Source: Saprospiraceae bacterium
Lineage (GTDB): Bacteria > Bacteroidota > Bacteroidia > Chitinophagales > Saprospiraceae
Reading direction: 5' to 3'
Length of the DNA stretch: 33,347 bases
Assembly: GCA_031373015.1 (NCBI GenBank)
Contig: JANMME010001047.1
Location: forward strand, 1 to 33,347
Shown here: in pieces, positions 2,199 through 30,381 of the stretch
Layout: each line of letters starts with the position of its first letter
How positions within the stretch are numbered: the first letter of the stretch is position 1
Notes under the pieces: generated by a model
The model's database searches: none
Told to the model about the DNA's origin: nothing
Seen by the model: the letters and a program-made list of their open reading frames with translations, nothing else
Position numbers and translations under genes: made by a program

Positions 2199-5100
2199 TC
2201 AAATTTTAACAAAAGGCACCACCTGATTTTGATCATCGGATCGAACATGAAGCCAATAGGTGCCTGATGGCAAGGTTCCAAGATCCTGTGCCCACGAATG
2301 TTCGCCAGCCTTGACCCATTGGTTTTTCACCAAGGTTTGCACTTGTTTGCCACTCCCGTCGACCACAAAGGCCGTCAGATTTGCATCTGTGTCCGATTTT
2401 AAGGTCCATTGCAAAATTTGTCGCATTGGATTGGGTGATACGGTTGCCGCAAACAACTGCGGCGCATTTTCCAATGGCGTATCGCGATAAATAGTGGCCC
2501 GGCGCACCACGCGGGTCTGGGTTTGGTTGGTGATTACCGGATAGTTAAAATCAAAATAGATGGCGGCATCATTTTTTAGCGTATCCCCCACAGTCGTGCT
2601 TTCTTTGGCGCTAATGGAGAATAGCACAAACCCATGAGAGGCTTGCTGGTTTGTTGTGCTGTCGGGCAATAAAATATTATCAAATTCCCAAGACACCACG
2701 CCGGGGTCATGGGCATTCATTTTATAAGGATGGCTGGCGGTGATGGTTCTAAGCGAAGCCCAATTCAACAAGGGCGAAAGCGTGTCGACAACCACGACGC
2801 GAAAAGCGGTATCGGTGCCTGTATTTTGGAAACGTATCAGGTAACGAAGTTCCTTGTTTGCCAAAGGCAACTCGCCATTTGGAGCTATGGTGTAGGCCGT
2901 TTTATCATTGGGATCTAGACTGTTCCTGATGGTGGAGACCAATCTGGTTATATGGTTTTCTTCGTTGACATCCGTATAAGGCCCTTGGAGGCCTGCCCCT
3001 GTTACCACCAATTGACCGGTTACGGATGGATCAGGCGGCAAGTGCATGGTAATTTTAATAACCGTCTCGGTGAAGGGATGCATTTCAGGCAATACAAACT
3101 GCAACTGACCCGATTGTACGCTGGAAGGATTGGGGGCCGCATTCAGGTAAGCGATCAAATTATCTGGATAATTGAAATACAGGGTCGTTCCTGCTGCTAC
3201 TGTTACCGTACCAAGATTTTTCACTGTGATGGTGTAGAAGGCGTCGAAGCCCGGGCGAAGGTTGGTGCTTGTCACCGTGACCGCCAAATCTTTGGTAGGC
3301 ACGGACACAAAGCCAACATTGAAAGTACTTGGAACAAGGGCATTCGATGTCACCGTTGGCGGTTGAAAGCAGGCTCCTGCCAAGGTGTAGGTGGGGGGTG
3401 TAAATTCAACGGTGTAATTGCCCGGCGGAAGAATCTTCTTAAGGTTGCCATTGTCGTCAGAGATGTCCAAATAATTACCCGGCTGGAAGACAAATGACTT
3501 GCCTGCAATCGGGAACTCTCCGACATCATGAACACAATTTTGGTTTTCATCCAGGAAGCTATGCCCTTCGACCACACTGTATTGTGCACTCCCGAGCGAG
3601 TCGAGGAATGGCGTCAAGCCCAAACGCCTCGGGGGGTATAAGATGGCATTTGACTCGGTTTCGACCATGCCGGAATACAAATAGCCATCCTTAATGACGT
3701 AGGTTTCCCGAAATCTCCAGTCAGTGTTGTAAAATTTGACTCCGTTCATTCCCAAATTTTTGGACAAAAAGGTTTGTCCTCCAGCCGATATTACCAACAA
3801 GGAATCAAATTGTTGGAAATAAAGATCGAATGTGGGGAACTTGAATAAAGATAGAAAAGAATTTCCAGCATCCAAGCTGATATAGCCTGCTCCAGTATTT
3901 TTATTGGTCAACAAGAGTCTCCCATCCTGATAAAAGATATTGAAGACCTCATTTTGAACATGCACTACCGGGAAAGTGAGTTCTGTCGTATGCCAGCTCT
4001 GCCCCAAATCATAAGTATAATACAAACGTTTGTCACGAACTATAAAAAGGCTGTCTCCTTTAGCCACCAAAGTTGTCGATGCTGGGGCTCCTGGCACTTG
4101 CGTCCAGGTTATGCCAGCATCCGCAGAGCGAAAAAGGCCCGCTGGTGCAGATTCTCTGACATTGTACAGATGCTGCCCCTCTATATCTGCCTTTACTTGA
4201 ATCAGTGCGTTGGATGTCAAAATTTCTGCCCAGGAGTCGCCTCCATCGGCAGAGCGGTAGAGTTTGTAGTCGCAACAGTTGTTATTACTCACAAAAAGAT
4301 ATCCCTGTAAATCAGCCACGGCGTCCCATCGATAAGTGTTCACCGGCAATCCTTGCGGCAAATAAGGTACCCAGGAATTGTTTTTCAACTGGCCCAAAAA
4401 ACCTTGCTGCATCCAAAATTTACCTCCATAATCATAAATCGAACCAGAAGCTGGCGGGTATGCCCCCTGCGGGAATTGCCAGGTAGCTCCGTCATCGTCA
4501 GACCGAACAGGCGTTTTTGACAACAAGAACAAACTGGCGCCTGTTGGAGCAAAATTTCGAATTGGATAATGGGAGTAATAATTATAGGGCCAATAAGTAC
4601 TTGGGCAAAACATCATCAGCGTAGCATCGGTGGGTGTACTAACCGGGGCACGATAAAGTGCTCCCTGATTGTTGTAATAATGAAAGTACCCATTGTGCGA
4701 GATCGCTGCACTTAATGTGAATGGCAATACAGAGGATTGGAAATTGCCAGATGTCAAAGGATTGGCCTTGGAGAATACCTTTCCCGACTTGGCGATAAGG
4801 TTGAGTTTGGCGCCGTCATAATGTCCGGCTACCAAATCCTCGGTTACATTTCCACCCAGATTAATTGAAGTCACGTTTGCAAAATCAGGCGTTTGCGAGG
4901 CATAAACTTTCAATGCATCCTCACATAACATTAGAAACCAGCCATTTGCAAACATTATTTTGTTGGATTGCTTGTCCGTAAGCAAGGCCTGTGTACAGGC
5001 CTGCCAACTGGCTCCTTTGTCCGCAGAGTAAAACCGTTTGTATCTTTTATGTTGCGAGGAAACTTCCAAACGGTAATTAAAAAACAACACGCCTCCGGCC

Positions 5101-5552
5101 TCTTCCAGATGTTCCTGATAAAAGAGTTCGGCATTAGGTTCATTAATATCATAAGGCTCTGCCTGAGAGAATACTTTCGTAAACGTTAAGCCCCCATTAA
5201 TGGAGTAATACCCCGAGATCATTTGCGTAGAGCTGACCTGTTTTTCTGTAAAAGCAAAAAGCGTATCGCCTTTGGCCGCAATGTTGACTACTTTTAGGGA
5301 GTAAAAATAAACCATCGTCCAGTGCGCACCGTTGTCGGCACTTTTGAACAACTTAATCTGTGCATTTTGATCCGCCACGTCGGGAAAAAGGGCAAAAAGG
5401 GTGTTGCCAACCTTTACGATCTCATTGATGTGCTGAGAAAAAGCGGGTAAGGGTTCTGAGCTAACTGTGATTTCAGGAAAAGGGCTACTTTGAGCAGTAA
5501 TTTTGCCAAAAATGGATAAAACGCAGAGCAGGACAGGTAGAAATTGGCGCAT
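2199..5552 (-). CDS. Large secreted BNR/Asp-box repeat protein with a T9SS C-terminal sorting domain
   Basis: An ATG at 5550-5552 gives the signal peptide MRQFLPVLLCVLSIFGKITAQ; the listed start at 5582 is TTG. Asp-box motifs are present (SADNGAHW, SADKGASW, SDDDGATW, SADGGDSW, SADAGITW, YDLGQSW). The tail (VSPNP...SGTYWLHV...VPFVKI) resembles a type A T9SS sorting domain. Confidence 0.8.
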   Translation of the reverse strand: MRQFLPVLLCVLSIFGKITAQSSPFPEITVSSEPLPAFSQHINEIVKVGNTLFALFPDVADQNAQIKLFKSADNGAHWTMVYFYSLKVVNIAAKGDTLFAFTEKQVSSTQMISGYYSINGGLTFTKVFSQAEPYDINEPNAELFYQEHLEEAGGVLFFNYRLEVSSQHKRYKRFYSADKGASWQACTQALLTDKQSNKIMFANGWFLMLCEDALKVYASQTPDFANVTSINLGGNVTEDLVAGHYDGAKLNLIAKSGKVFSKANPLTSGNFQSSVLPFTLSAAISHNGYFHYYNNQGALYRAPVSTPTDATLMMFCPSTYWPYNYYSHYPIRNFAPTGASLFLLSKTPVRSDDDGATWQFPQGAYPPASGSIYDYGGKFWMQQGFLGQLKNNSWVPYLPQGLPVNTYRWDAVADLQGYLFVSNNNCCDYKLYRSADGGDSWAEILTSNALIQVKADIEGQHLYNVRESAPAGLFRSADAGITWTQVPGAPASTTLVAKGDSLFIVRDKRLYYTYDLGQSWHTTELTFPVVHVQNEVFNIFYQDGRLLLTNKNTGAGYISLDAGNSFLSLFKFPTFDLYFQQFDSLLVISAGGQTFLSKNLGMNGVKFYNTDWRFRETYVIKDGYLYSGMVETESNAILYPPRRLGLTPFLDSLGSAQYSVVEGHSFLDENQNCVHDVGEFPIAGKSFVFQPGNYLDISDDNGNLKKILPPGNYTVEFTPPTYTLAGACFQPPTVTSNALVPSTFNVGFVSVPTKDLAVTVTSTNLRPGFDAFYTITVKNLGTVTVAAGTTLYFNYPDNLIAYLNAAPNPSSVQSGQLQFVLPEMHPFTETVIKITMHLPPDPSVTGQLVVTGAGLQGPYTDVNEENHITRLVSTIRNSLDPNDKTAYTIAPNGELPLANKELRYLIRFQNTGTDTAFRVVVVDTLSPLLNWASLRTITASHPYKMNAHDPGVVSWEFDNILLPDSTTNQQASHGFVLFSISAKESTTVGDTLKNDAAIYFDFNYPVITNQTQTRVVRRATIYRDTPLENAPQLFAATVSPNPMRQILQWTLKSDTDANLTAFVVDGSGKQVQTLVKNQWVKAGEHSWAQDLGTLPSGTYWLHVRSDDQNQVVPFVKI

Positions 5553-5621
5553 ATAAGTTATTGTTTTTGAAAGAGATGCCAAGACACAACATTCTGCTGC
5601 ATTGTGCTTGATTTTTTTCCA

Positions 5622-6992
5622 TTACAATTTTACGACTTCTATCTTTCCCGTCTTTCTACTTTTTTCCGCCATGAACCCCATTACATGGCTTTCGATAGAG
5701 GCATCAATGGTGGAAGTTAGCAATTCGGGTTTGCGCTGGGAAACAGCCTGAAGCCAGTTGCGCACCAAGCGCCAGTCGCCGCCGCCATGGCCATCGCCGC
5801 TGGAGTTGTCGTAAACAGTGCTTTTCCCCGTCCGAAAATCCGTCAGCGTGAACGTTTCCATATCGCCCACAATGTCGCCCATACTGCCCATCACGCGGGT
5901 GCGGCGCCCGTCGTAAGAAGTGAATGCTTCCATGGAGAAATTAGCCGTCGCGCCGCCTTCGAATTCCATCGAAGCAATGTAGTGGTCTTCTTGGTTATTG
6001 TCACTATGGTACACACAACGACCGTAGTTGGTCGTTCGGAGTTTTTCCAAAATGTAATCCCCCTGCTTTTCCTTCTCCTCCGGTAGGTCAAAAACGTATG
6101 TGCGCTGACGATTCCGGTAGTAAATTTTCATGGCAGAATACGGGCAGGTGCTCTCCACCGCACAGCCATTCATGCAACGATCCGTGCTTCCATCCGGGGC
6201 GTTTTCTTTTCTGAACCATTTGATCCCTCCCATCGCAACAATTTTTTTACAAGGCTTTCCAATGAGCCAACGGAGGATGTCGAGGTCGTGGCAACTTTTG
6301 GCCAGGATGATAGGCGTGGTGGCATAGCGGTCGTGCCAGTTGCCGCGCACATAACTGTGGCTCATGTGGATATGCTCAATAGGCTCTATATGCTGCACGC
6401 TCACAATTTCGCCGATAGCCCTACCCTGCATCAGTTCGCGGAGTTTTTCAAAATAAGGCGAATAGCGCAGCACATGGCACACCGCCACGATGCGCCCGGT
6501 TTTCTTCGCCAACGCAAGAATATCCCTGCACTCTTTTTCAGAAGGAGATATGGGTTTTTCCAGCAATACATCGTAACCCAACTTGAGGGCCGCCATGCAT
6601 GGGCCGTAATGCAGGTTGTCGGGCGTGGTGATCAGCACAGCATCGGCGAACTTGGGTCGCTGAAAAACGTGTTCCCAGGTGACAAATCTGTTAGCCTCCC
6701 CGATCTTGTGCTTTTGCGCATACCGATCGTTGCGTAATTGAATCGGCTCGGCCACGCCCACCACATCCATTTCATCCGGGTAGGAAAGGGCGTAGTTGCC
6801 ATACACATTGCCCCGGTTGCCCGCGCCAATGGTGACAACGGTGATCGGCTTTGCAGGCTTTTGGTAAAGCGGATTTTCCTCCGAAAGCAAGGGAATTTGA
6901 AAAACCTCTTCTTCTTTGGAAAAGCCTGTCAGGACGGCGGCACCGGCGGCGGCACCCAGGGTTTTTAAAAGTTGGCGGCGAGAGATAGGCAT
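5622..6992 (-). CDS. Gfo/Idh/MocA-family oxidoreductase with a twin-arginine signal
   Basis: Tat motif in MPISRRQLLKTLGAAAGAAVL. Rossmann start VVTIGAGNRGNVY and the EKP motif (LLEKPISPS) are typical of Gfo/Idh/MocA. Confidence 0.8.
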   Translation of the reverse strand: MPISRRQLLKTLGAAAGAAVLTGFSKEEEVFQIPLLSEENPLYQKPAKPITVVTIGAGNRGNVYGNYALSYPDEMDVVGVAEPIQLRNDRYAQKHKIGEANRFVTWEHVFQRPKFADAVLITTPDNLHYGPCMAALKLGYDVLLEKPISPSEKECRDILALAKKTGRIVAVCHVLRYSPYFEKLRELMQGRAIGEIVSVQHIEPIEHIHMSHSYVRGNWHDRYATTPIILAKSCHDLDILRWLIGKPCKKIVAMGGIKWFRKENAPDGSTDRCMNGCAVESTCPYSAMKIYYRNRQRTYVFDLPEEKEKQGDYILEKLRTTNYGRCVYHSDNNQEDHYIASMEFEGGATANFSMEAFTSYDGRRTRVMGSMGDIVGDMETFTLTDFRTGKSTVYDNSSGDGHGGGDWRLVRNWLQAVSQRKPELLTSTIDASIESHVMGFMAEKSRKTGKIEVVKL

Positions 6993-6998
6993 GGTTAT

Positions 6999-7092
6999 GA
7001 AGTGATAGAGTGATGAAGTGATGGGGTGATGGGGTGATAGAGTGATCCCCTCCTTCGCCTGTGGCTATGGCGGGTAAAAGTGATGAAGTGAT
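6999..7092. repeat. Octamer tandem repeat (RRRGTGAT): 6 copies, a 30-nt spacer, then 2 more copies
   Basis: gaagtgat agagtgat gaagtgat ggggtgat ggggtgat agagtgat (6999-7046), then cccctccttcgcctgtggctatggcgggta, then aaagtgat gaagtgat (7077-7092). The array starts 7 nt upstream of the oxidoreductase start codon (minus strand). Confidence 0.9.
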
Positions 7093-7172
7093 CCCTGCTT
7101 TGGGATCCTGGTGTAGTGGCTTAAAGAAACCACCTGATGGCCAAAAACAGCCCGAAAGGTAATCATTCAAAT

Positions 7173-7209
7173 AAAAAAAACGCCTCTCAGGAAAAACCTG
7201 AAAAGCGTT
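7173..7209 (-). terminator. Rho-independent terminator downstream of tonB (7357..8181)
   Basis: The minus strand reads ACGCUUUUCAGG-UUUUU-CCUGAGAGGCGU, a 12-bp stem with two G-U pairs, followed by a U8 run. Confidence 0.7.
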
Positions 7210-7248
7210 TGAAAACATCTTTTGGGGATCATAGAATCAGGGGTATAG

Positions 7249-7354
7249 CAGTCAAGGGTCAACAGTCAATGGTCAACAGTCAATGGTCAACAGTCAATGG
7301 TCAACAGTCAAGGGTCAACAGTCAATGGTCAACAGTCAATGGTCAACAGTCAAT
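7249..7354. repeat. Tandem repeat, 14-nt unit GTCAACAGTCAATG (two GTCAAnn heptamers), about 7.5 units
   Basis: Read directly at 7249-7354. It lies between the tonB stop (7357) and its terminator (7209), so it is predicted to be in the 3' UTR. Confidence 0.95.
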
Positions 7355-7356
7355 CT

Positions 7357-8181
7357 TTACTTCAGCGCAAACCGTATGGGCAGCGTGAAGCGCACTTTCA
7401 CCGGATGCCCATTGGCTTCTCCAGGACTCCATTTAGGCATAGTCTTTACCACCCGAGTGGCTTCATTGCCCAAGATATTGCCACCTGCTGGAGTTTTTAC
7501 GACCGTGATATCGCTGATATTGCCGTCTTTCCCAACTACAAATGTGAGTACCACCTGGCCTTGAGTCCCTGCCTCTTTTGCCATTTCCGGGTAAGTCATG
7601 TGTTTGTAGATCCACTTGAACATCTCTGCCTCGCCGCCCGGGAAGCTGGGCATCTTGTTCACGGCGAACGGATCAAGGGGGTCATCATCCGCAGGTTTTG
7701 GCGTTTCGACGATACCCAATCCTGCATTCGGCGGGTCCAACGAGGGTGGGCCTTCATTCGGCCCTTCAACGGTCTGTGTGCCCACATTACGGGGGTCTTC
7801 CAGCACGGTTTGTACGTCTACCGGCTTTTCCTCTGGCACAAGGTCGTCTGGGGCGACTACGGGCGGGGTGTAGGCAATAACAGCTTTGGGCGGCGGTGGC
7901 GGCGTGTTTAGCACCGGTGGGGGAACTGGCTTTTCGATGGTAATCATGGTTGTGGTGGCAATCACTTCAGTTATGGGTTCTTCTGGCAAAAGGCTATAAA
8001 AAGAAGCCAAAATGCGCGGCAACAGCAACAAAAGCGCAATCAGCAAAAGGCCGATTCCAAAGGCACGAGCCAAAGTGGTCGGATATTCGCGGCGAAGTTG
8101 ATACGCGCCGTAAGCGCGGTTGCGGTTGGCAAAGACGATGTCCAGTGCGTCGCGTTGCGACACAGAATCATGGGTAGTCAT
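7357..8181 (-). CDS. tonB: Energy transducer TonB (paralogue 1)
   Basis: N-terminal anchor (RNRAYGAYQLRREYP plus a TM helix), Pro-rich spacer, and a C-terminal TonB domain (PSFPGGEAEMFKWIYKHMTYPEMAKEAGTQGQVVLTFVVGKDG...WSPGEANGHPVKVRFTLPIRF). Confidence 0.9.
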   Translation of the reverse strand: MTTHDSVSQRDALDIVFANRNRAYGAYQLRREYPTTLARAFGIGLLLIALLLLLPRILASFYSLLPEEPITEVIATTTMITIEKPVPPPVLNTPPPPPKAVIAYTPPVVAPDDLVPEEKPVDVQTVLEDPRNVGTQTVEGPNEGPPSLDPPNAGLGIVETPKPADDDPLDPFAVNKMPSFPGGEAEMFKWIYKHMTYPEMAKEAGTQGQVVLTFVVGKDGNISDITVVKTPAGGNILGNEATRVVKTMPKWSPGEANGHPVKVRFTLPIRFALK

Positions 8182-8292
8182 GGCACAAAATTTTAAGTGT
8201 GAAACGAGAGGCTTTGAGGCTTTGGTTGGCCGACCGTTTGAATGTAAGATGTTGGTGATGAGGGTTTTGGTGGGTGGAGATTAGATTTTATT

Positions 8293-8841
8293 TTAAAAAT
8301 GCTTCGCCTCTTCCTCCGAAACATCCATCACGCAATAGTAGCGAACCTGGCAAATAGCCATCTCATCCAGCGCATCTACCAAATTTTTGTACCGGGAATT
8401 TTTGGCTGGCTTGATGATAATGTTGAGTTGCGAGCCTTGCAATTCCTCGCCTGTTTTCGAGTCTGTGTACTTTTGAAGGCCGAACTGTGCTTCTACTTTT
8501 TCTTTTTTGTGCAAAATCACCTGCCGCAAGCCGACTGCATCGAAAGTGGTGGAATCCATTTTATCAAGATCCAAACCTTCGTACCAGTAAACCTTGTCGC
8601 CAGCACCAAACAGAAGGGTGAGCACTTTGGACTGCTTTATCGGCTCGGCCACCCCTTCGTCTTTTGGCATCACAAGAGGCATGATGCTGGGCTTGGCCAG
8701 TGCTGTGGTGAGCATAAAAAAGGTGATGAGCAAAAACCCCAAATCAACCATTGGGGTGAAGTCAATGCGCGTAGACATTCGGTGGGAGCGCGGTTTGCCG
8801 GTTGCGGCAATGGGGCGGGCGGAAGCTTGGAAATCAGCCAT
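8293..8841 (-). CDS. exbD: Biopolymer transporter ExbD/TolR (paralogue)
   Basis: MSTRIDFTPMVDLGFLLITFFMLTT signature. Paralogous to 9959..10591. Confidence 0.9.
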   Translation of the reverse strand: MADFQASARPIAATGKPRSHRMSTRIDFTPMVDLGFLLITFFMLTTALAKPSIMPLVMPKDEGVAEPIKQSKVLTLLFGAGDKVYWYEGLDLDKMDSTTFDAVGLRQVILHKKEKVEAQFGLQKYTDSKTGEELQGSQLNIIIKPAKNSRYKNLVDALDEMAICQVRYYCVMDVSEEEAKHF

Positions 8842-9958: not shown

Positions 9959-10591
9959 TCACTTAGTAGCCGCTTCAACTTGTTCTTCTACATTGAATTT
10001 AAGACCAGCAGCAGGGTTTTTGATAAAGGCCACTTCGAGTGGCGATATATCAAGGATCACATAGTAACGCACCTTACAAATGGCCATTTCGTCGAGGGCA
10101 TCTACAAGGTTTTTGTAGCGTGCCTCCTTCGTTGCTTTTATAATGACGTTGATGTACGAGCCATCGGTATGCTCCTCTTCTACCCCTTCCTTGTTCTTCT
10201 TCTTGTATGTTTCCGTTTGAAACTGCGCTTTCACTTTGTCCATCTTGTTCAAGATGACTTGGCGTACGCCCTCAGCGGAATAGTCGGTCGAATCAAGTTT
10301 TGCATCGGTGATGCCTTCATACCAGTAAACCTTGTCATTGGCGCCCAACAAAAGCGTGAGCACCTTTGATTCCTTTACCGGTTCGATATCCTCCTTCTTG
10401 ATGTCCTTTTCAGGCATCACGAGCGCCATAATTTGCGGTTTGGCGAGTGTCGTGGTGAGCATGAAGAACGTGATGAGCAGGAAACCCAAGTCCACCATCG
10501 GCGTAAAATCTATACGCGTGGACATTTTTTTGGATCTGACCTTCCCACCTTTCTTATGACCACCGCCACTGTCTTGAGCTATTTCAGCCAT
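9959..10591 (-). CDS. exbD: Biopolymer transporter ExbD/TolR
   Basis: MSTRIDFTPMVDLGFLLITFFMLTT signature and a C-terminal ExbD fold region (YKNLVDALDEMAICKVRYY). Confidence 0.9.
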   Translation of the reverse strand: MAEIAQDSGGGHKKGGKVRSKKMSTRIDFTPMVDLGFLLITFFMLTTTLAKPQIMALVMPEKDIKKEDIEPVKESKVLTLLLGANDKVYWYEGITDAKLDSTDYSAEGVRQVILNKMDKVKAQFQTETYKKKNKEGVEEEHTDGSYINVIIKATKEARYKNLVDALDEMAICKVRYYVILDISPLEVAFIKNPAAGLKFNVEEQVEAATK

Positions 10592-13901: not shown

Positions 13902-13989
13902 GGAGAGATGGCAGAGTTGGTTTAATGCACCTGATTCGAAATCAGACGTACTGTCAAAGGTACCGGGGGTTCGAATCCCTCTCTCTCCG
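13902..13989 (+). tRNA. tRNA-Ser (anticodon CGA); integration target of the island
   Basis: Acceptor GGAGAGA/TCTCTCC, anticodon loop TTCGAAA, long variable arm, T-arm GGGGG-TTCGAAT-CCCTC, discriminator G. Confidence 0.9.
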
Positions 13990-13990
13990 C
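13976..13990 (+). repeat. attL core (3' end of the intact tRNA-Ser)
   Basis: TCCCTCTCTCTCCGC, identical to 30265-30279. Confidence 0.8.
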
Positions 13991-21883: not shown

Positions 21884-23031
21884 AACAAGGTTGGACAAAA
21901 GTCAAAATGGGAGAGCTGTTGAAACTTTCGGATAATACCGTTTCAGTAACACCTTTGGAAAATTACCCTCAGATTGGGATTAGGCTTTGGGGAGAAGGCG
22001 CGTATGCCAGAGAAGATATTTTGGGCAGCCAAACCCAATATAAATTTTTCTACAAAGCCCAAAAAGGGGATCTGACATTCAACAAAATTTGGGTTAGAAA
22101 TGGAGCAGTTGCGGTTATTAATGAAAGGCTAAATGGCTTTTATGTGTCGCCCGAATTTCCGGTTTATCATCCCAAAAACGAGATTGTTTCACCTGATTGG
22201 CTCAATTTCCTTACCAAAGCCAAGTTTTTTTGGGAGAGTTGTAATGAAAAAGCCTTCGGCACAAGCGGCAAAAATCGGGTCAAACCCAGCGAGTTTCTTC
22301 AAATAGAAATCTTCCTCCCTCCCTTATCCGAACAACAGCGCATCGCTGGGAGATTGGTGGCTTTGAAAGGTAAAGTAGATGCGGTGAAGGGATTAAGGGT
22401 GGAGCAGGAAAAAGAAATGAAAGGGCTGCTTTTGATACAATACCAAAAAATGATTGAGGGCGCGGATTGGAAACCGATGGAGAAAGTTGCGCCGATTGTG
22501 CGCCGCGAAGTTGCTATTTCTGAGGATGGTATTTATCCAGAATTGGGTATCCGAAGTTTTGGGAAAGGGACATTTCACAAACCTGCCCTTACTGGGTTTG
22601 AAGTCGGTACGAAACGCCTGTATAAGATAGAAGCGGGGGATTTGATGTTTAGCAATGTCTTTGCATGGGAAGGAGCAATGGCAGTTGCCCAAAAAGAGGA
22701 TGACGGGCGTTTTGGCTCACATCGGTTTATTTCATGCGTTTGTGAAGAAGGGGTTGCCTTACCTGAATTTTTGTGCTTTCATTTTCTGACCCGCAAAGGA
22801 ATGGAAGACATCAATGCCGCCTCACCGGGTGGTGCTGGCAGAAACAAAACTTTGTGTTTGAACAAACTTGAAAAAACACTTGTCCCTGTTCCTGACCCTG
22901 ATTTGCAAAAAGGCTTTCTTCAACTACTATCCAAAATAGATGCCCTGAAAGCGGCGCAAGCGGGTCAGTTGTCGGCGTTGGAGGGGTTGTTTCCGGGGGT
23001 GTTGGAGAAGGCGTTTCGGGGGGAGTGGTGA
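21880..23031 (+). CDS. hsdS: Type I R-M specificity subunit (two TRDs)
   Basis: ATGA overlap with hsdM. Two target-recognition halves are separated by the conserved helix LPPLSEQQRIAGRL, and the C-terminal conserved region is LKAAQAGQLSALEGLFPGVLEKAFRGEW. Confidence 0.88.
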   Translation: MKQGWTKVKMGELLKLSDNTVSVTPLENYPQIGIRLWGEGAYAREDILGSQTQYKFFYKAQKGDLTFNKIWVRNGAVAVINERLNGFYVSPEFPVYHPKNEIVSPDWLNFLTKAKFFWESCNEKAFGTSGKNRVKPSEFLQIEIFLPPLSEQQRIAGRLVALKGKVDAVKGLRVEQEKEMKGLLLIQYQKMIEGADWKPMEKVAPIVRREVAISEDGIYPELGIRSFGKGTFHKPALTGFEVGTKRLYKIEAGDLMFSNVFAWEGAMAVAQKEDDGRFGSHRFISCVCEEGVALPEFLCFHFLTRKGMEDINAASPGGAGRNKTLCLNKLEKTLVPVPDPDLQKGFLQLLSKIDALKAAQAGQLSALEGLFPGVLEKAFRGEW

Positions 23032-23050
23032 GGTTAAAAATCATATCATT

Positions 23051-26861: not shown

Positions 26862-26894
26862 AAAAAACAGAAGCGGCCTACTGATTAGGCCGCT
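26862..26894 (-). terminator. Rho-independent terminator of the SH3-like gene
   Basis: Minus strand: AGCGGCCUA-AUCAG-UAGGCCGCU followed by UCUGUUUUUU. Overlaps the stop at 26885-26887. Confidence 0.7.
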
Positions 26895-27217
26895 ACTTTT
26901 AAAATGCGTTCGGCACGGAAAGAACGCCATGCGTTTTTGTCGAGGTCGAAATACTTAATGGCGGTTGGGTTTTCGGCGCGGTCGCTGCCTTTGTGCTCGT
27001 ACTGGAAAAGGGTTGGGTTGAGTGTGCCGTAGGCTTCCCGCACTTCGCCGTCTTGCTTTTGGAAAACGAAACGGGTAGCACCAAGGCGAAGGGCAACACG
27101 GAGGCGAACAATTTGCCACGCTTGCGCCTGACATTGCCCCCATGTAAGGAACTGGTTTTGGCGGCGGATTTGGTGAGCGAGGGTAAGGATTTCGGAGCGG
27201 TTGAATTGCTGTTTCAT
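26885..27217 (-). CDS. Small SH3 beta-barrel-like protein (DUF2693/WYL_2-like)
   Basis: GATRFVFQKQDGEVREAYGTLNP...IKYFDLDKNAWRSFRAERIL matches my recollection of the Bacteroidota SH3-fold DUF2693 pattern. The ATG at 27215-27217 sits correctly behind a consensus promoter. Confidence 0.5.
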   Translation of the reverse strand: MKQQFNRSEILTLAHQIRRQNQFLTWGQCQAQAWQIVRLRVALRLGATRFVFQKQDGEVREAYGTLNPTLFQYEHKGSDRAENPTAIKYFDLDKNAWRSFRAERILKVAA

Positions 27218-27239
27218 ATTCTGTTTGCGTTTGATGGTA

Positions 27240-27272
27240 CAAATATACGCACGAATATTTGTCAATTACAAA
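27240..27272 (-). promoter_or_regulatory. Bacteroidota-type promoter for the SH3-like gene
   Basis: The minus strand reads TTTG (27272-27269), 21 nt, then TATATTTG (27247-27240), about 22 nt upstream of the ATG. Confidence 0.55.
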
Positions 27273-27571: not shown

Positions 27572-27648
27572 GCCAAAAATAGAATGCAGCACTTAGTACG
27601 CTAAGTCTTCAACTGTCGGAAGGAAACTCCTGTATTTAGCGGAACTAT

Positions 27649-28341
27649 TTGTCATTCTCAAAGATTAATTACTCCATGAGCGAGAAACTAATGTCCTCGA
27701 ATGAAGCAATAAAACTTCATCTAATGGAAATCGAAGAAATAAATGGGAGGGTAAGAGCGTCCGCCTACAGAAGAGCGTTAAGAGATGCCAGGATAGCAAC
27801 AGGTCGAAATCCAGCCGATGGTGAAAAAACAAATGAATTCTTGCATGGGAATTGGCTTGGAGCACTTGGCTATTTATCGCTTTTAGATCAAATAGGCACT
27901 TGTTTTAAACCCATTAATATGGTAAAATCAGAGGGTCGTAACTCAATCATTAAGGCATTGAATTGTTTTTCTGATTTGGACAAACAAGAGTCATTTGCTT
28001 TATTCGCTTTGCGATGTTCGTTTGCGCATGATTTCAGTTTATTTAATATCCCAAGTGAAAAAGATAGAGACAAAGAATTACTGACTCACCATTTTACAGT
28101 GGGTATTGGCAACGAATTCCCACTCGTTTATCTTCCTTTCAGATTATGGAGTGGGAAACATGAAGATAGAAACAAATATAACAAAACTTTTGTAAATCTT
28201 GAAAAGCTTGGAGATTTAGTGGAAGAAATATGTGGGAAAATCCAAGCCCTTGCAGACTCAGGACAATTAGGCTTTGTCTTAAAAGGTGAGTCGGATGAAC
28301 TGATTTACCGATATAATGCCATTTGGTCTGAAAAAAGGTAA
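27649..28341 (+). CDS. Hypothetical protein with an R-x4-H (HEPN-like) motif
   Basis: 230 aa and AT-rich. Predicted helical N-terminal half (LHGNWLGALGYLSLLDQIG), and ALRCSFAHD (R122-x4-H127) fits the minimal HEPN active-site motif. Confidence 0.5.
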   Translation: MSFSKINYSMSEKLMSSNEAIKLHLMEIEEINGRVRASAYRRALRDARIATGRNPADGEKTNEFLHGNWLGALGYLSLLDQIGTCFKPINMVKSEGRNSIIKALNCFSDLDKQESFALFALRCSFAHDFSLFNIPSEKDRDKELLTHHFTVGIGNEFPLVYLPFRLWSGKHEDRNKYNKTFVNLEKLGDLVEEICGKIQALADSGQLGFVLKGESDELIYRYNAIWSEKR

Positions 28342-28342
28342 A

Positions 28343-28377
28343 ACCGTGTTGCCCGGTGTTTGACCGTCAATCATTCT
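28343..28377 (+). repeat. Element X, truncated copy (left arm and loop of a terminator hairpin)
   Basis: ACCGTGTTGCCCGGTGTTTGACCGTCAATCATTCT is identical to 30074-30108. Here the right hairpin arm is replaced by the hsdS remnant. Confidence 0.9.
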
Positions 28378-28456
28378 GGCGCAAGCGGGTCAATTTGCAG
28401 CTTTGGAGGGTTTGTTTCCGGTGGTGTTAGAGAATGCGTTTCGTGCGGAGTGGTGA
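28378..28456 (+). pseudogene. hsdS: Remnant of a second hsdS gene (last ~26 codons plus stop)
   Basis: 81-bp alignment to 22953-23033 with about 11 mismatches. Reads in frame as AQAGQFAALEGLFPVVLENAFRAEW* against AQAGQLSALEGLFPGVLEKAFRGEW*. Confidence 0.85.
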
Positions 28457-28534
28457 GGCTACTTTTTTCGTGCTTTTTTTGTAGTTTTTTGGTGGCTTTT
28501 TGCTGGATTATTGCTACCTAATAAATCCTAACCC

Positions 28535-29572
28535 ATGTCAAAATCGCTGAAATTTGTCCCCTACGAAAACCACTCCGGGTTTGACCCTGATTTGCGGACG
28601 CATTTGCCAACCCTTCCAAAAAGGTACACGCTGATTTTGGATGAAGCCATTTCAGGCGAAGCACCCAAAGATTTTATTCGTGTGTACGAGTACGGACGAA
28701 GCCCGCGCAAAAGCAATCCAAAAACATGGACACCCTACATTGCCAAAGTCGCCCGGAAATGGTATCCCAATGAAAGCATCACGGAACATTTGCTCAATCG
28801 TTTGGGTTTTGCTTTGGGCGTGACGGTCGCCAACTCCCGGTTGGCCGTGGATGATGAATTTGGACGGCTTCGGTTTTTAAGCGAGTATTTTTTGAGGCCG
28901 GGCGAAAGGCTCGAACACGGTGCAGAAATTTACGCGGGTTATCTCTCCGATGAATCGTTGGTGGAAGAAATTGAGAAGGACAGGCGAACCGTTCGGAACT
29001 TTTTTACGTTTCAGTTTTCGGAATGTGCCATTCAGCACCGCTTTGGGCATGGCGACATTTCCCAAAAGATTACGGAAGACTTGGTGCGAATGCTCTGTTT
29101 TGATGCCGTTACAGGCAATAATGACCGACATATTTACAATTGGGGGATCATTTGTCATGTTAAAGGAGAACGTGCACCACGTTTTTCTCCCGTTTATGAT
29201 TCAGCACGGGGGCTGTTCTGGAATGAGCATGAAGAAAAATTAGTGCGTTTTCAGGAAAAAACATCCGATGGGGTAACGAACCTCGAAAGATATGCCGTAA
29301 GTTCGATGCCTCGAATCGGCTGGGAGGGGGTACAAAATCCCAACCATTTTGAATTGGCTCGTTTAATATATCAAAACCGCCCTGAATTTCGTTTCGTATT
29401 TGATGACATGGTTAACCCCGCTTGCGAAGCAAATGCGAATGTTTTACTGGAAAAAGAATTTGAAAAATTGTTCTCCCCAACCCGTTACGATTTGATTAGG
29501 AAGTGTCTTAATTTGCGCTTCCAAATGCTCACCAAAATTATTCACCAAATAAAAAAGGAGGAACGCACATGA
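28535..29572 (+). CDS. HipA-family Ser/Thr kinase, C-terminal (kinase) domain only (HipT-like)
   Basis: DAVTGNNDRHIYNWGII (catalytic D-x-H-x-x-N) and RFSPVYDSARGL (Mg-binding xPxYD). The YIAKV...ESITEHLLNRLGFALGV region resembles the HipA ATP-site/helix region. The HipA N-terminal subdomain is absent. Confidence 0.75.
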   Translation: MSKSLKFVPYENHSGFDPDLRTHLPTLPKRYTLILDEAISGEAPKDFIRVYEYGRSPRKSNPKTWTPYIAKVARKWYPNESITEHLLNRLGFALGVTVANSRLAVDDEFGRLRFLSEYFLRPGERLEHGAEIYAGYLSDESLVEEIEKDRRTVRNFFTFQFSECAIQHRFGHGDISQKITEDLVRMLCFDAVTGNNDRHIYNWGIICHVKGERAPRFSPVYDSARGLFWNEHEEKLVRFQEKTSDGVTNLERYAVSSMPRIGWEGVQNPNHFELARLIYQNRPEFRFVFDDMVNPACEANANVLLEKEFEKLFSPTRYDLIRKCLNLRFQMLTKIIHQIKKEERT

Positions 29573-29982
29573 AAATCACATGGCTACGCCGCTGGCAGCG
29601 TTCCGAAAATGCCAGCGTACAAGACGCGGAAAAGCCGATGAAATCCGCCCCCCGACTTGTTTTCCGGCTCATTTACGAAAACAATGAGATCGGAACACTT
29701 GAATTTAGTGACAGCCAATGGCGGTTTGTTTACTCTGACTGGTTCAAAAACCAATCGGACATTCAGCCATTTGCCAATTTCCCAGAGGTAAACCGTGAGT
29801 ATATTTCCGATGACTTGCCCCCATTTTTTGAAAGTCGTTTGCCCGGAATTTCTCAACCACAGGTAGAGGCTTTTTTGAAAGAAAAAGTACAAGTCAGCGA
29901 AGGCGAAACAAAGGCGGCTCTGTTAAAGCAATTTGGTCGGCGCACCATTACCAACCCGTTTGAGTTGGCCCCGGCTTTTTAA
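29569..29982 (+). CDS. HipA N-terminal-subdomain-like protein (HipS-like)
   Basis: IGTLEFSDSQWRFVYSDWF...LPPFFESRLPG...LLKQFGRRTITNPFEL follows the HipA N-terminal coupling-domain pattern. ATGA overlap with the kinase gene. An alternative start is M24 at 29638. Confidence 0.6.
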   Translation: MKITWLRRWQRSENASVQDAEKPMKSAPRLVFRLIYENNEIGTLEFSDSQWRFVYSDWFKNQSDIQPFANFPEVNREYISDDLPPFFESRLPGISQPQVEAFLKEKVQVSEGETKAALLKQFGRRTITNPFELAPAF

Positions 29983-30005
29983 ACTTTTCCGCGTTGATAG
30001 AAATC

Positions 30006-30041
30006 GAAAGACCTTTTGCTTTTAGTGGCAAAGGGTCTTTC
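30006..30041 (+). terminator. Hairpin after the HipS-like gene
   Basis: GAAAGACCTTTTGC / GCAAAGGGTCTTTC, a 14-bp stem with one G-U; the U-tract is weak. Confidence 0.5.
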
Positions 30042-30073
30042 TGATTTGAGGGCTACCCCTTAACTTTGTCCCG

Positions 30074-30131
30074 ACCGTGTTGCCCGGTGTTTGACCGTCA
30101 ATCATTCTTTGCAGGGGCAACACGGTTTTTT
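30074..30131 (+). terminator. Element X, complete copy: large-loop hairpin plus T6
   Basis: CCGTGTTGCCC (30075-30085), a 29-nt loop, GGGCAACACGG (30115-30125), then TTTTTT. Confidence 0.6.
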
Positions 30132-30160
30132 CACTTAGGATTAGGGGTTCGTCTTAAAGC

Positions 30161-30214
30161 AAGTGGTGTAAAAAGTGGGTTATTTTACACCACTTTTTAC
30201 ACCACTTGTTTTTT
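30161..30214 (+). terminator. 18-bp-stem hairpin plus T-run near the island right end (also a candidate recombinase-binding inverted repeat)
   Basis: AAGTGGTGTAAAAAGTGG (30161-30178), an 11-nt loop, CCACTTTTTACACCACTT (30190-30207), then GTTTTTT. Confidence 0.6.
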
Positions 30215-30264: not shown

Positions 30265-30279
30265 TCCCTCTCTCTCCGC
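30265..30279 (+). repeat. attR core (duplicated tRNA-Ser 3' end)
   Basis: TCCCTCTCTCTCCGC with no tRNA body upstream. Confidence 0.8.
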
Positions 30280-30377
30280 TTTAACCGCCGAAGCACCGCC
30301 GCCCGAAGGGCAAGGTGCGTAGGCGGTGCGCCAAGCCACACCGCCGCCCGAAGGGCAAGGTGCGTAGGCGGTGCGCC
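30280..30377. repeat. REP-like palindromic units (two 39-nt copies) downstream of attR
   Basis: TTTAACCGCC followed by CACCGCCGCCCGAAGGGCAAGGTGCGTAGGCGGTGCGCC at 30294-30332 and 30339-30377. Confidence 0.85.
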
Positions 30378-30381
30378 ATTA

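Follow-up and report, generated by a model that had tools for sequence, protein, structure and literature searches.

The stretch of DNA considered here, referred to as the window, is a 33,347-nucleotide contig (JANMME010001047.1, GenBank assembly GCA_031373015.1) of a Saprospiraceae bacterium, and it originates from a freshwater-sediment metagenome. It carries two genes (Table 1) that encode a HipA-like kinase and, directly downstream, a smaller HipS-like protein. The stop codon of the kinase gene overlaps the start codon of its partner as ATGA at positions 29569-29572. A sequence-only reading had described this pair as a split HipA-like kinase with the kinase gene first, a HipA N-terminal-coupling-like protein second, and no helix-turn-helix (HTH) partner nearby. 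Translation and domain matches bear out the 345-amino-acid open reading frame (ORF) with its HipA motifs, the ATGA overlap, and every motif that was quoted. The two-gene, kinase-first organization is likewise upheld by hidden Markov models (HMMs), family profiles, predicted folds, and synteny in 80 of 80 related loci.

The kinase clears the gathering score for the Pfam family HipA_C (PF07804) with 45.9 bits versus 30.5 (E = 6.7e-12). A Pfam scan of the protein finds no Couple_hipA domain, in agreement with the earlier claim that the HipA N-terminal subdomain is missing. Moreover, the PADLOC model PDC-M03A aligns over the full length of the protein (E = 1.3e-25, 88.5 bits), with a score as good as that of a genuine HipL-type protein from phage 899. 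The motifs GNNDRHIYNWG and SPVYDSARG correspond to residues 194-204 and 218-226, respectively. A Gly-rich loop is located near the N-terminus (A38-I-S40-G41-E-A-P-K45), wherein Ser40 aligns with Ser59 of HipT and Ser150 of HipA. Also present are K71 and K75, a catalytic loop (D197-R-H199-x-Y-N202), and the Mg-binding residue D222. When conservation was scored over 76 kinase sequences, G41, P44, K45, K71, K75, D197, R198, H199, and N202 proved to be invariant, and D222 was kept in 75 of them. With all catalytic residues intact, the kinase looks active from its sequence. The choice of start codon is backed by relatives that open with the same MSKSLKF.

An AlphaFold2 model of the kinase built from the 76-sequence alignment has a predicted local distance difference test (pLDDT) score of 93.9 and a predicted template modeling (pTM) score of 0.92. 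Among PDB structures, Foldseek places CtkA of Helicobacter pylori first (TMq 0.69-0.71, TMt 0.79-0.83), and HipA and HipT come next with TM scores of approximately 0.5. A profile of the kinase family, when compared with PDB sequences, matches CtkA at E = 9.8e-11 and HipT of Legionella pneumophila, HipT(Lp), at E = 0.009 (18.6 bits). As judged from the model, the solved structure closest to the kinase is CtkA rather than HipT or HipA. Family profiles were needed for these comparisons because single-sequence PDB searches gave only marginal matches, both for the kinase (HipT, E = 0.015) and for its partner (HipS(Lp), E = 0.72).

The 137-amino-acid partner contains the segments IGTLEF, WRFVYSDWF, LPPFFESRLPG, and FGRRTITNPFEL. 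It clears the Pfam gathering score for Couple_hipA (30.8 bits versus 22.5, E = 4.3e-7), and NCBIfam reports the same coupling domain below its own cutoff. Thus, the check on whether HMMs would find this ORF to be unrelated to the HipA N-terminal domain came out in favor of a relationship. The PADLOC model PDC-M03B also matches (E = 1e-13), albeit only over profile positions ~21-117 of ~245, and a Pfam scan of the protein finds no HIRAN domain. A HIRAN remnant beyond the gene was considered as well and can be excluded, because the ~90 nucleotides between the stop codon and a downstream 35-nucleotide repeat, termed X, leave no room for it. The start codon is again backed by relatives, which open with the same MKITWLRRW.

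In the AlphaFold2 model of the partner (pLDDT 79.6), residues 1-29 form a disordered tail and residues 30-137 are confidently folded. Foldseek matches this model to HipS of Legionella, of Escherichia coli O127, and of Haemophilus influenzae (HI_0666), and then to the N-terminus of HipA (TMt 0.67-0.75). A profile of the HipS-like family gives significant PDB matches only to those same three solved HipS proteins (E = 0.0017-0.0067). Residues 30-137 are therefore modeled as having the fold of HipS and of HipA N-subdomain 1; in other words, the predicted protein is a detached N-subdomain 1. Residues F32, G42, W51, Y55, P85-F86-F87, R90, and P92 are invariant in the family. Because the HMM, profile, and model matches agree, the description of a split HipA is correct at the levels of both sequence and fold.

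Hip kinase families have been defined by their genetic context (Gerdes, Baerentsen & Brodersen 2021, mBio; PMC8262856). In that scheme, hipJS is a short kinase followed by a downstream HipS-only protein without a DNA-binding partner, and it accounted for 2 of 1,239 modules. Two related layouts are hipIN (14 modules), in which a short kinase precedes a HipS-HIRAN protein called HipN, and hipL, in which the kinase, HipS-like, and HIRAN domains are fused in a single protein. All three fall in clade XI and none had been experimentally tested, and the published analysis places the HipS of hipJS together with that of hipBST (PMC8262856). The window has the features by which hipJS was described, namely a core kinase that lacks N-subdomain 1, a HipS-only partner encoded downstream, and no adjacent DNA-binding antitoxin of the HTH type. 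By this gene-context definition, the module is of the hipJS type. The layout proposed in the sequence-only reading is thus confirmed, and the organization does have a published name, a point that this reading had left undecided. Because the name hipJS dates from 2021, the novelty is smaller than had been implied. We found no later paper on hipJS in a full-text literature search. The window differs from the published set in the length of its kinase (345 amino acids, versus a descriptive range of 279-321 for the kinases HipG, HipI, HipJ, and HipM) and in belonging to a large, multi-phylum family rather than to a set of two modules.

The size of this family is evident from several searches. The kinase has 725 word-sharing homologues in a set of 5.8 billion proteins, and in an exhaustive search of representatives the number of clusters was 291 with a threshold of E<=1e-30, rising to 906 with E<=1e-10 and to 2,963 with E<=1e-3. 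A scan of species-representative genomes yielded 269 kinase relatives, of which 80 were kept and examined. Their loci are labeled L0xx below; counts of neighboring genes refer to all 80 loci and counts of upstream genes to 72. The 80 loci are distributed among Saprospiraceae, Chitinophagales, and other Bacteroidota, as well as Verrucomicrobiota, Latescibacterota, Rhodothermota, Rhodothermales, Balneolales, and a few gut taxa. The kinase family is large and spans at least five phyla. No match to it was found in the plasmid collection, and the phage collection held only a distant HipL-type match. Among 2.9 million viral contigs in IMG/VR, two (L082 and L083) encode a relative with 43-44% identity. 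Given this near-absence from plasmid and phage collections, plasmids and phages are not typical carriers of the family.

Conservation of the pair is strict. A HipS-like coding region follows the kinase in 80 of 80 loci and is immediately adjacent in 79, where the junction is an overlap or a gap of only a few bases. Because the same gene pair recurs in all of these related loci, the pairing is far beyond chance. At the remaining locus, L060, the HipS gene is 1.7 kb downstream. The intervening ~1.7 kb (positions 6933-8656) is mostly non-coding and includes a short kinase-like fragment at 7690-7821, and it perhaps arose by insertion or by partial duplication. The relatives' kinases are mostly 328-345 amino acids long, and their partners range from 123 to 164 amino acids, none with an extra domain. 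No conserved third gene was found in the 80 loci, in which the largest neighbor cluster reaches only 8 of 80, and an HTH_3 gene is upstream in only 2 of 72. The window likewise has no HTH gene adjacent to the pair, and the 230-amino-acid ORF upstream has no Pfam match. On this point the earlier claim holds both in the window and in the synteny of relatives.

The manner in which these modules decay is also informative. Three loci (L011, L036, and L049) have a broken kinase, and HipS is intact in two of them. At L039, an orphan second HipS (10026-10463) with no detectable kinase upstream is located 3 kb from a complete pair. No intact kinase without HipS occurs among the 80 loci. Broken kinases beside intact HipS genes, and never the reverse, are what one would expect to see if a toxin and its antidote had decayed, although the counts are small and the genomes are metagenome-assembled genomes (MAGs), whose frameshifts may be assembly errors.

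Comparison with known systems reveals a mixture of shared and distinct features. In hipBST of E. coli O127:H6, H. influenzae, and L. pneumophila, the kinase is also split from its N-subdomain, the HipS fold is shared, and both HipT and the window kinase have an N-terminal extension before the Gly-rich loop. However, hipBST is tricistronic (hipB-hipS-hipT) with the HTH protein HipB, whereas the window has two genes with the kinase first and no hipB. In addition, the window kinase is distant from HipT (E about 0.01), and the window HipS carries an extra disordered N-terminal tail of ~29 residues and a small residue at the position of Trp65 in E. coli HipS. Canonical hipBA of E. coli K-12 shares the kinase superfamily and catalytic motifs with the window, where the N-subdomain-1 fold is provided in trans. 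In contrast, the window lacks HipB and a fused N-subdomain, and its structural similarity to this system is only about TM 0.5. CtkA (JHP0940; PDB 3AKJ, 3AKK, and 3AKL), described as a proinflammatory, cell-translocating kinase, has only 12-14% identity to the window kinase.

The hipIN and hipL layouts, which correspond to the PADLOC defense candidate PDC-M03, have the same gene order, and both window proteins match their models. The PDC-M03 partner has a C-terminal HIRAN domain, however, and the window partner does not. The kinase family profile scores the HipL-type kinase of phage 899 at 38 bits versus the 18.6 bits of HipT(Lp), which, together with the 88.5 bits for PDC-M03A, is indirectly consistent with a possible placement in clade XI, next to HipI. 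The HipS profile finds the HipS proteins of hipBST. The HipS-family HMM does not detect the HipS-like domain of phage 899 HipL, so direct descent from a HipN/HipL-type domain is unsupported by that test; unlike this outcome, the PDC-M03B models do match the 137-amino-acid protein. The profile results parallel the grouping published for the HipS of hipJS and of hipBST. As a separate observation, the HipL-type gene of Escherichia phage 899 (PV533660.1; L081), a P2-like phage, occupies positions 2453-4012 between the replication endonuclease and portal genes. Its 519-amino-acid product, annotated as a "hypothetical protein", combines HipA_C, Couple_hipA, and HIRAN domains and matches both PDC-M03A and PDC-M03B. 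Yersinia phage GMG73 has a match of identical length.

Table 1. Features of the hipJS-type module and its immediate surroundings in the window.
Feature	Position	Strand	Basis or remark
HipJ-type core Ser/Thr kinase	28535..29572	+	345 aa; Pfam HipA_C, PADLOC PDC-M03A, AlphaFold2, Foldseek
HipS-like protein, putative antitoxin/regulator	29569..29982	+	137 aa; Couple_hipA, PDC-M03B, profile, AlphaFold2/Foldseek
35-nt direct repeat X, copy 1, left edge of cassette	28343..28377	+	Exact match to copy 2
hsdS 3'-end remnant (type I restriction-modification), 81 nt	28378..28458	+	Alignment to hsdS end 22953-23033
T-rich spacer before kinase start	28459..28534	+	Conserved in L004, L005
Terminator-like hairpin	30001..30047	+	18 nt past HipS stop; -26.4 kcal/mol, z = -5.06
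35-nt repeat X, copy 2	30074..30108	+	5' arm and loop of hairpin 30073-30127

A ~16.3-kb island at tRNA-Ser(CGA) contains the pair close to its right end. Both boundaries of the island are marked by the 15-mer TCCCTCTCTCTCCGC, which lies at the 3' end of the tRNA gene (13976-13990) and recurs at 30265-30279. Its cargo includes a tyrosine integrase, a Rep_1 protein, the restriction-modification (R-M) genes hsdR, hsdM, and hsdS, and a gene with a putAbiC domain. Within this integrative defense island at tRNA-Ser, the pair constitutes a cassette of cargo. Another cargo gene (26885-27265, minus strand), whose 126-amino-acid product contains a WYL_2 domain (Sm-like SH3; E = 2.4e-21), is kept beside the module in L004. 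An inverted repeat with 23-nucleotide arms, 96% complementary, and an 11-nucleotide loop (30156-30212) lies ~60 nucleotides inside the right island boundary. Just outside this end are two perfect tandem copies of a 40-nucleotide GC-rich sequence (30294-30333 and 30339-30378) at a spacing of 45 nucleotides.

Repeat X occurs as two exact copies in the window, versus zero expected by chance. Copy 1 lacks the 3' arm of the hairpin and folds no better than shuffled sequences. The hairpin that includes copy 2 is complete and is followed by UUUUUU (z = -2.74). Window positions 27574-28396, which hold the 230-amino-acid ORF and copy 1 of X, are absent from L004, and in L005 a diverged X-like copy precedes the pair and a 94% copy follows it. 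Repeat X looks like a recurrent 3' boundary, in the form of a terminator hairpin, of cargo cassettes behind hsdS. Logan unitigs from the likely source metagenome (run X1) break exactly at X (27665-28372 and 28343-30103). That the X-flanked layout is an artefact of assembly can be excluded, because L005 is an independent MAG with X-like copies on both sides of the pair and because unitig depths on either side of X are similar (6.9 and 5.9).

The hsdS remnant and T-rich spacer noted upstream in the sequence-only reading are indeed there, and the 35-nucleotide repeat precedes them. The remnant also aligns to its counterparts ahead of the module in L004, L008, and L009, which are either hsdS ends or remnants of them. 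In L008 (hsdS 3'-end sequence at 5539-5700), a complete hsdS stands where the window has the remnant and is followed by the pair. In L009 (hsdS 3'-end sequence at 4717-4827 and 5839-5906), a complete hsdS is followed first by other cargo, next by a second remnant of the hsdS 3' end, and finally by the pair, and L004 has an hsdS remnant before the pair. The recurrence of hsdS or its 3' end before the pair in these three loci indicates that the pair was originally located behind hsdS in this clade. Across the wider family, the gene upstream of the pair encodes a type I specificity subunit in 4 of 72 loci. These layouts suggest that cargo is exchanged between islands by recombination in the conserved 3' end of hsdS.

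With regard to expression, a scan of the T-rich spacer for promoters of the sigma-70 type and of the Bacteroidota TTTG/TAnnTTTG types found no consensus match, and the spacer may nonetheless hold a promoter. A metatranscriptome contig from a ~95%-identical relative covers the 3' end of the kinase gene, the junction, and all of HipS, and it lends weak support to co-transcription of the two genes.

Hip kinases are textbook persistence toxins, and to our knowledge every experimentally studied Hip system (hipBA and hipBST) has an HTH partner. We consider it probable, largely by analogy with these systems, that the module functions in toxin-antitoxin (TA) control or abortive infection and that HipS restrains the kinase, a role with a precedent in the literature (PMC8262856). 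The kinase would be a growth-arresting toxin that phosphorylates an essential component of translation, most likely an aminoacyl-tRNA synthetase as in the HipBST and HipBA precedents. The HipS-like protein would bind beside the Gly-rich loop and keep the kinase inactive. Loss or displacement of HipS, perhaps upon phage infection or loss of the island, would free the kinase and lead to dormancy or abortive infection. Because there is no DNA-binding partner, expression is presumably not autoregulated by a HipB protein. Its probable source is either read-through out of the operon upstream, originally that of hsdS, or a promoter within the T-rich spacer. The mode of inhibition probably also differs in detail from that of E. 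coli HipS, because the window protein has no equivalent of Trp65. Perhaps its disordered N-terminal tail serves as a labile element or as one that occludes the active site.

Several observations weigh against this reading. In E. coli HipS, Trp65 wedges under the Gly-rich loop of the kinase (PMC10627512). An HMM alignment maps this residue to position 95 of the partner, which is S, G, T, or A in 62 sequences, although the mapping is approximate because it comes from the last part of a local alignment that is weak. By this mapping, the inhibitory contact known from the literature is not conserved. Autophosphorylation control does not appear to be family-wide either, because the position of Ser40 varies across the kinases (G in 26, S in 23, A in 19, and T in 6). 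Translational coupling with the kinase gene in first place offers no obvious way to make antitoxin in excess. Furthermore, the defense association of neighboring genes is modest outside the close clade, plasmid and phage collections contain almost no copies of the module, and the metatranscriptome contig comes from a relative and could contain DNA. Lastly, CtkA, the closest relative with a solved structure, is not known to act as a toxin of a TA system.

A different view of the split HipA stays in play because the Trp wedge is missing and because the coupled genes have the kinase first. In this view the HipS-like protein is not an inhibitor but an obligate subunit, with a structural, activating, or substrate-selecting role, and restores a full HipA-like kinase. 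Something else, such as autophosphorylation or a factor of the host, would then control the kinase. After all, the homologous N-subdomain 1 belongs to the active HipA toxin (PMC8262856), the gene order suggests stoichiometric co-production, and the strict co-occurrence in 80 of 80 loci would fit an obligate heterodimer equally well. On the other hand, all three characterized free-standing HipS proteins are antitoxins (PMC10627512). The family also includes kinases that are broken while the adjacent HipS is intact, as well as one HipS that is an orphan, and never an intact kinase alone, with the caveat already given for these small numbers from MAGs. We therefore regard an obligate subunit as unlikely, though it deserves serious consideration. 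It is quite improbable, in our estimation, that the module consists of a CtkA-like signaling or effector kinase, without toxicity, and a protein accessory to it, and belongs neither to TA nor to defense systems. CtkA is the best match to the window kinase by both profile and structure, clearly ahead of HipA and HipT. However, the module is cargo of an integrative island with R-M and Abi genes, its distribution across phyla is patchy with variable neighbors, its kinase also matches the phage-borne HipL-type kinase and PDC-M03A, and its partner is a HipS homologue. The flanking hsdS 3' fragment and the duplicated 35-nucleotide repeats are signs of rearrangement, as would be expected if the pair were a decaying, non-functional remnant of island recombination. 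Yet both ORFs have their full length and retain every residue that is invariant in the family, protein identity to relatives (89% for the kinase and 88% for HipS) exceeds the DNA identity of 81% in L001, and a close relative is represented in a metatranscriptome. We give this last possibility hardly any credence.

If, as we favor, HipS restrains the kinase, the control logic might still be unlike that of HipBST. We offer, as a speculation that is more likely wrong than right by a wide measure, that the tail of HipS acts as a latch and that the pair is slaved to hsdS as an abortive-infection back-up or addiction module. A HipS without the Trp wedge would instead use its disordered, family-specific tail of ~29 residues as a pseudo-substrate or as a latch sensitive to a protease or phage. 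In the Saprospiraceae/Chitinophagales clade, interference with the R-M operon, or its loss, would unleash the kinase.

The module in the window represents a much larger clade of a named layout and is not a new kind of system. The hipJS layout was already known; what is new here is the size of the family, the strict pairing of its two genes, the likeness of the kinase to CtkA, the missing Trp wedge, the HipS tail, and the linkage to hsdS. Until now comprising two database entries, hipJS defines a large, pair-conserved family that extends across several phyla and occurs in defense islands. As such, the family is a tractable model for how a HipS fold controls a Hip kinase without HipB, and for the question of whether such kinases take part in phage defense.

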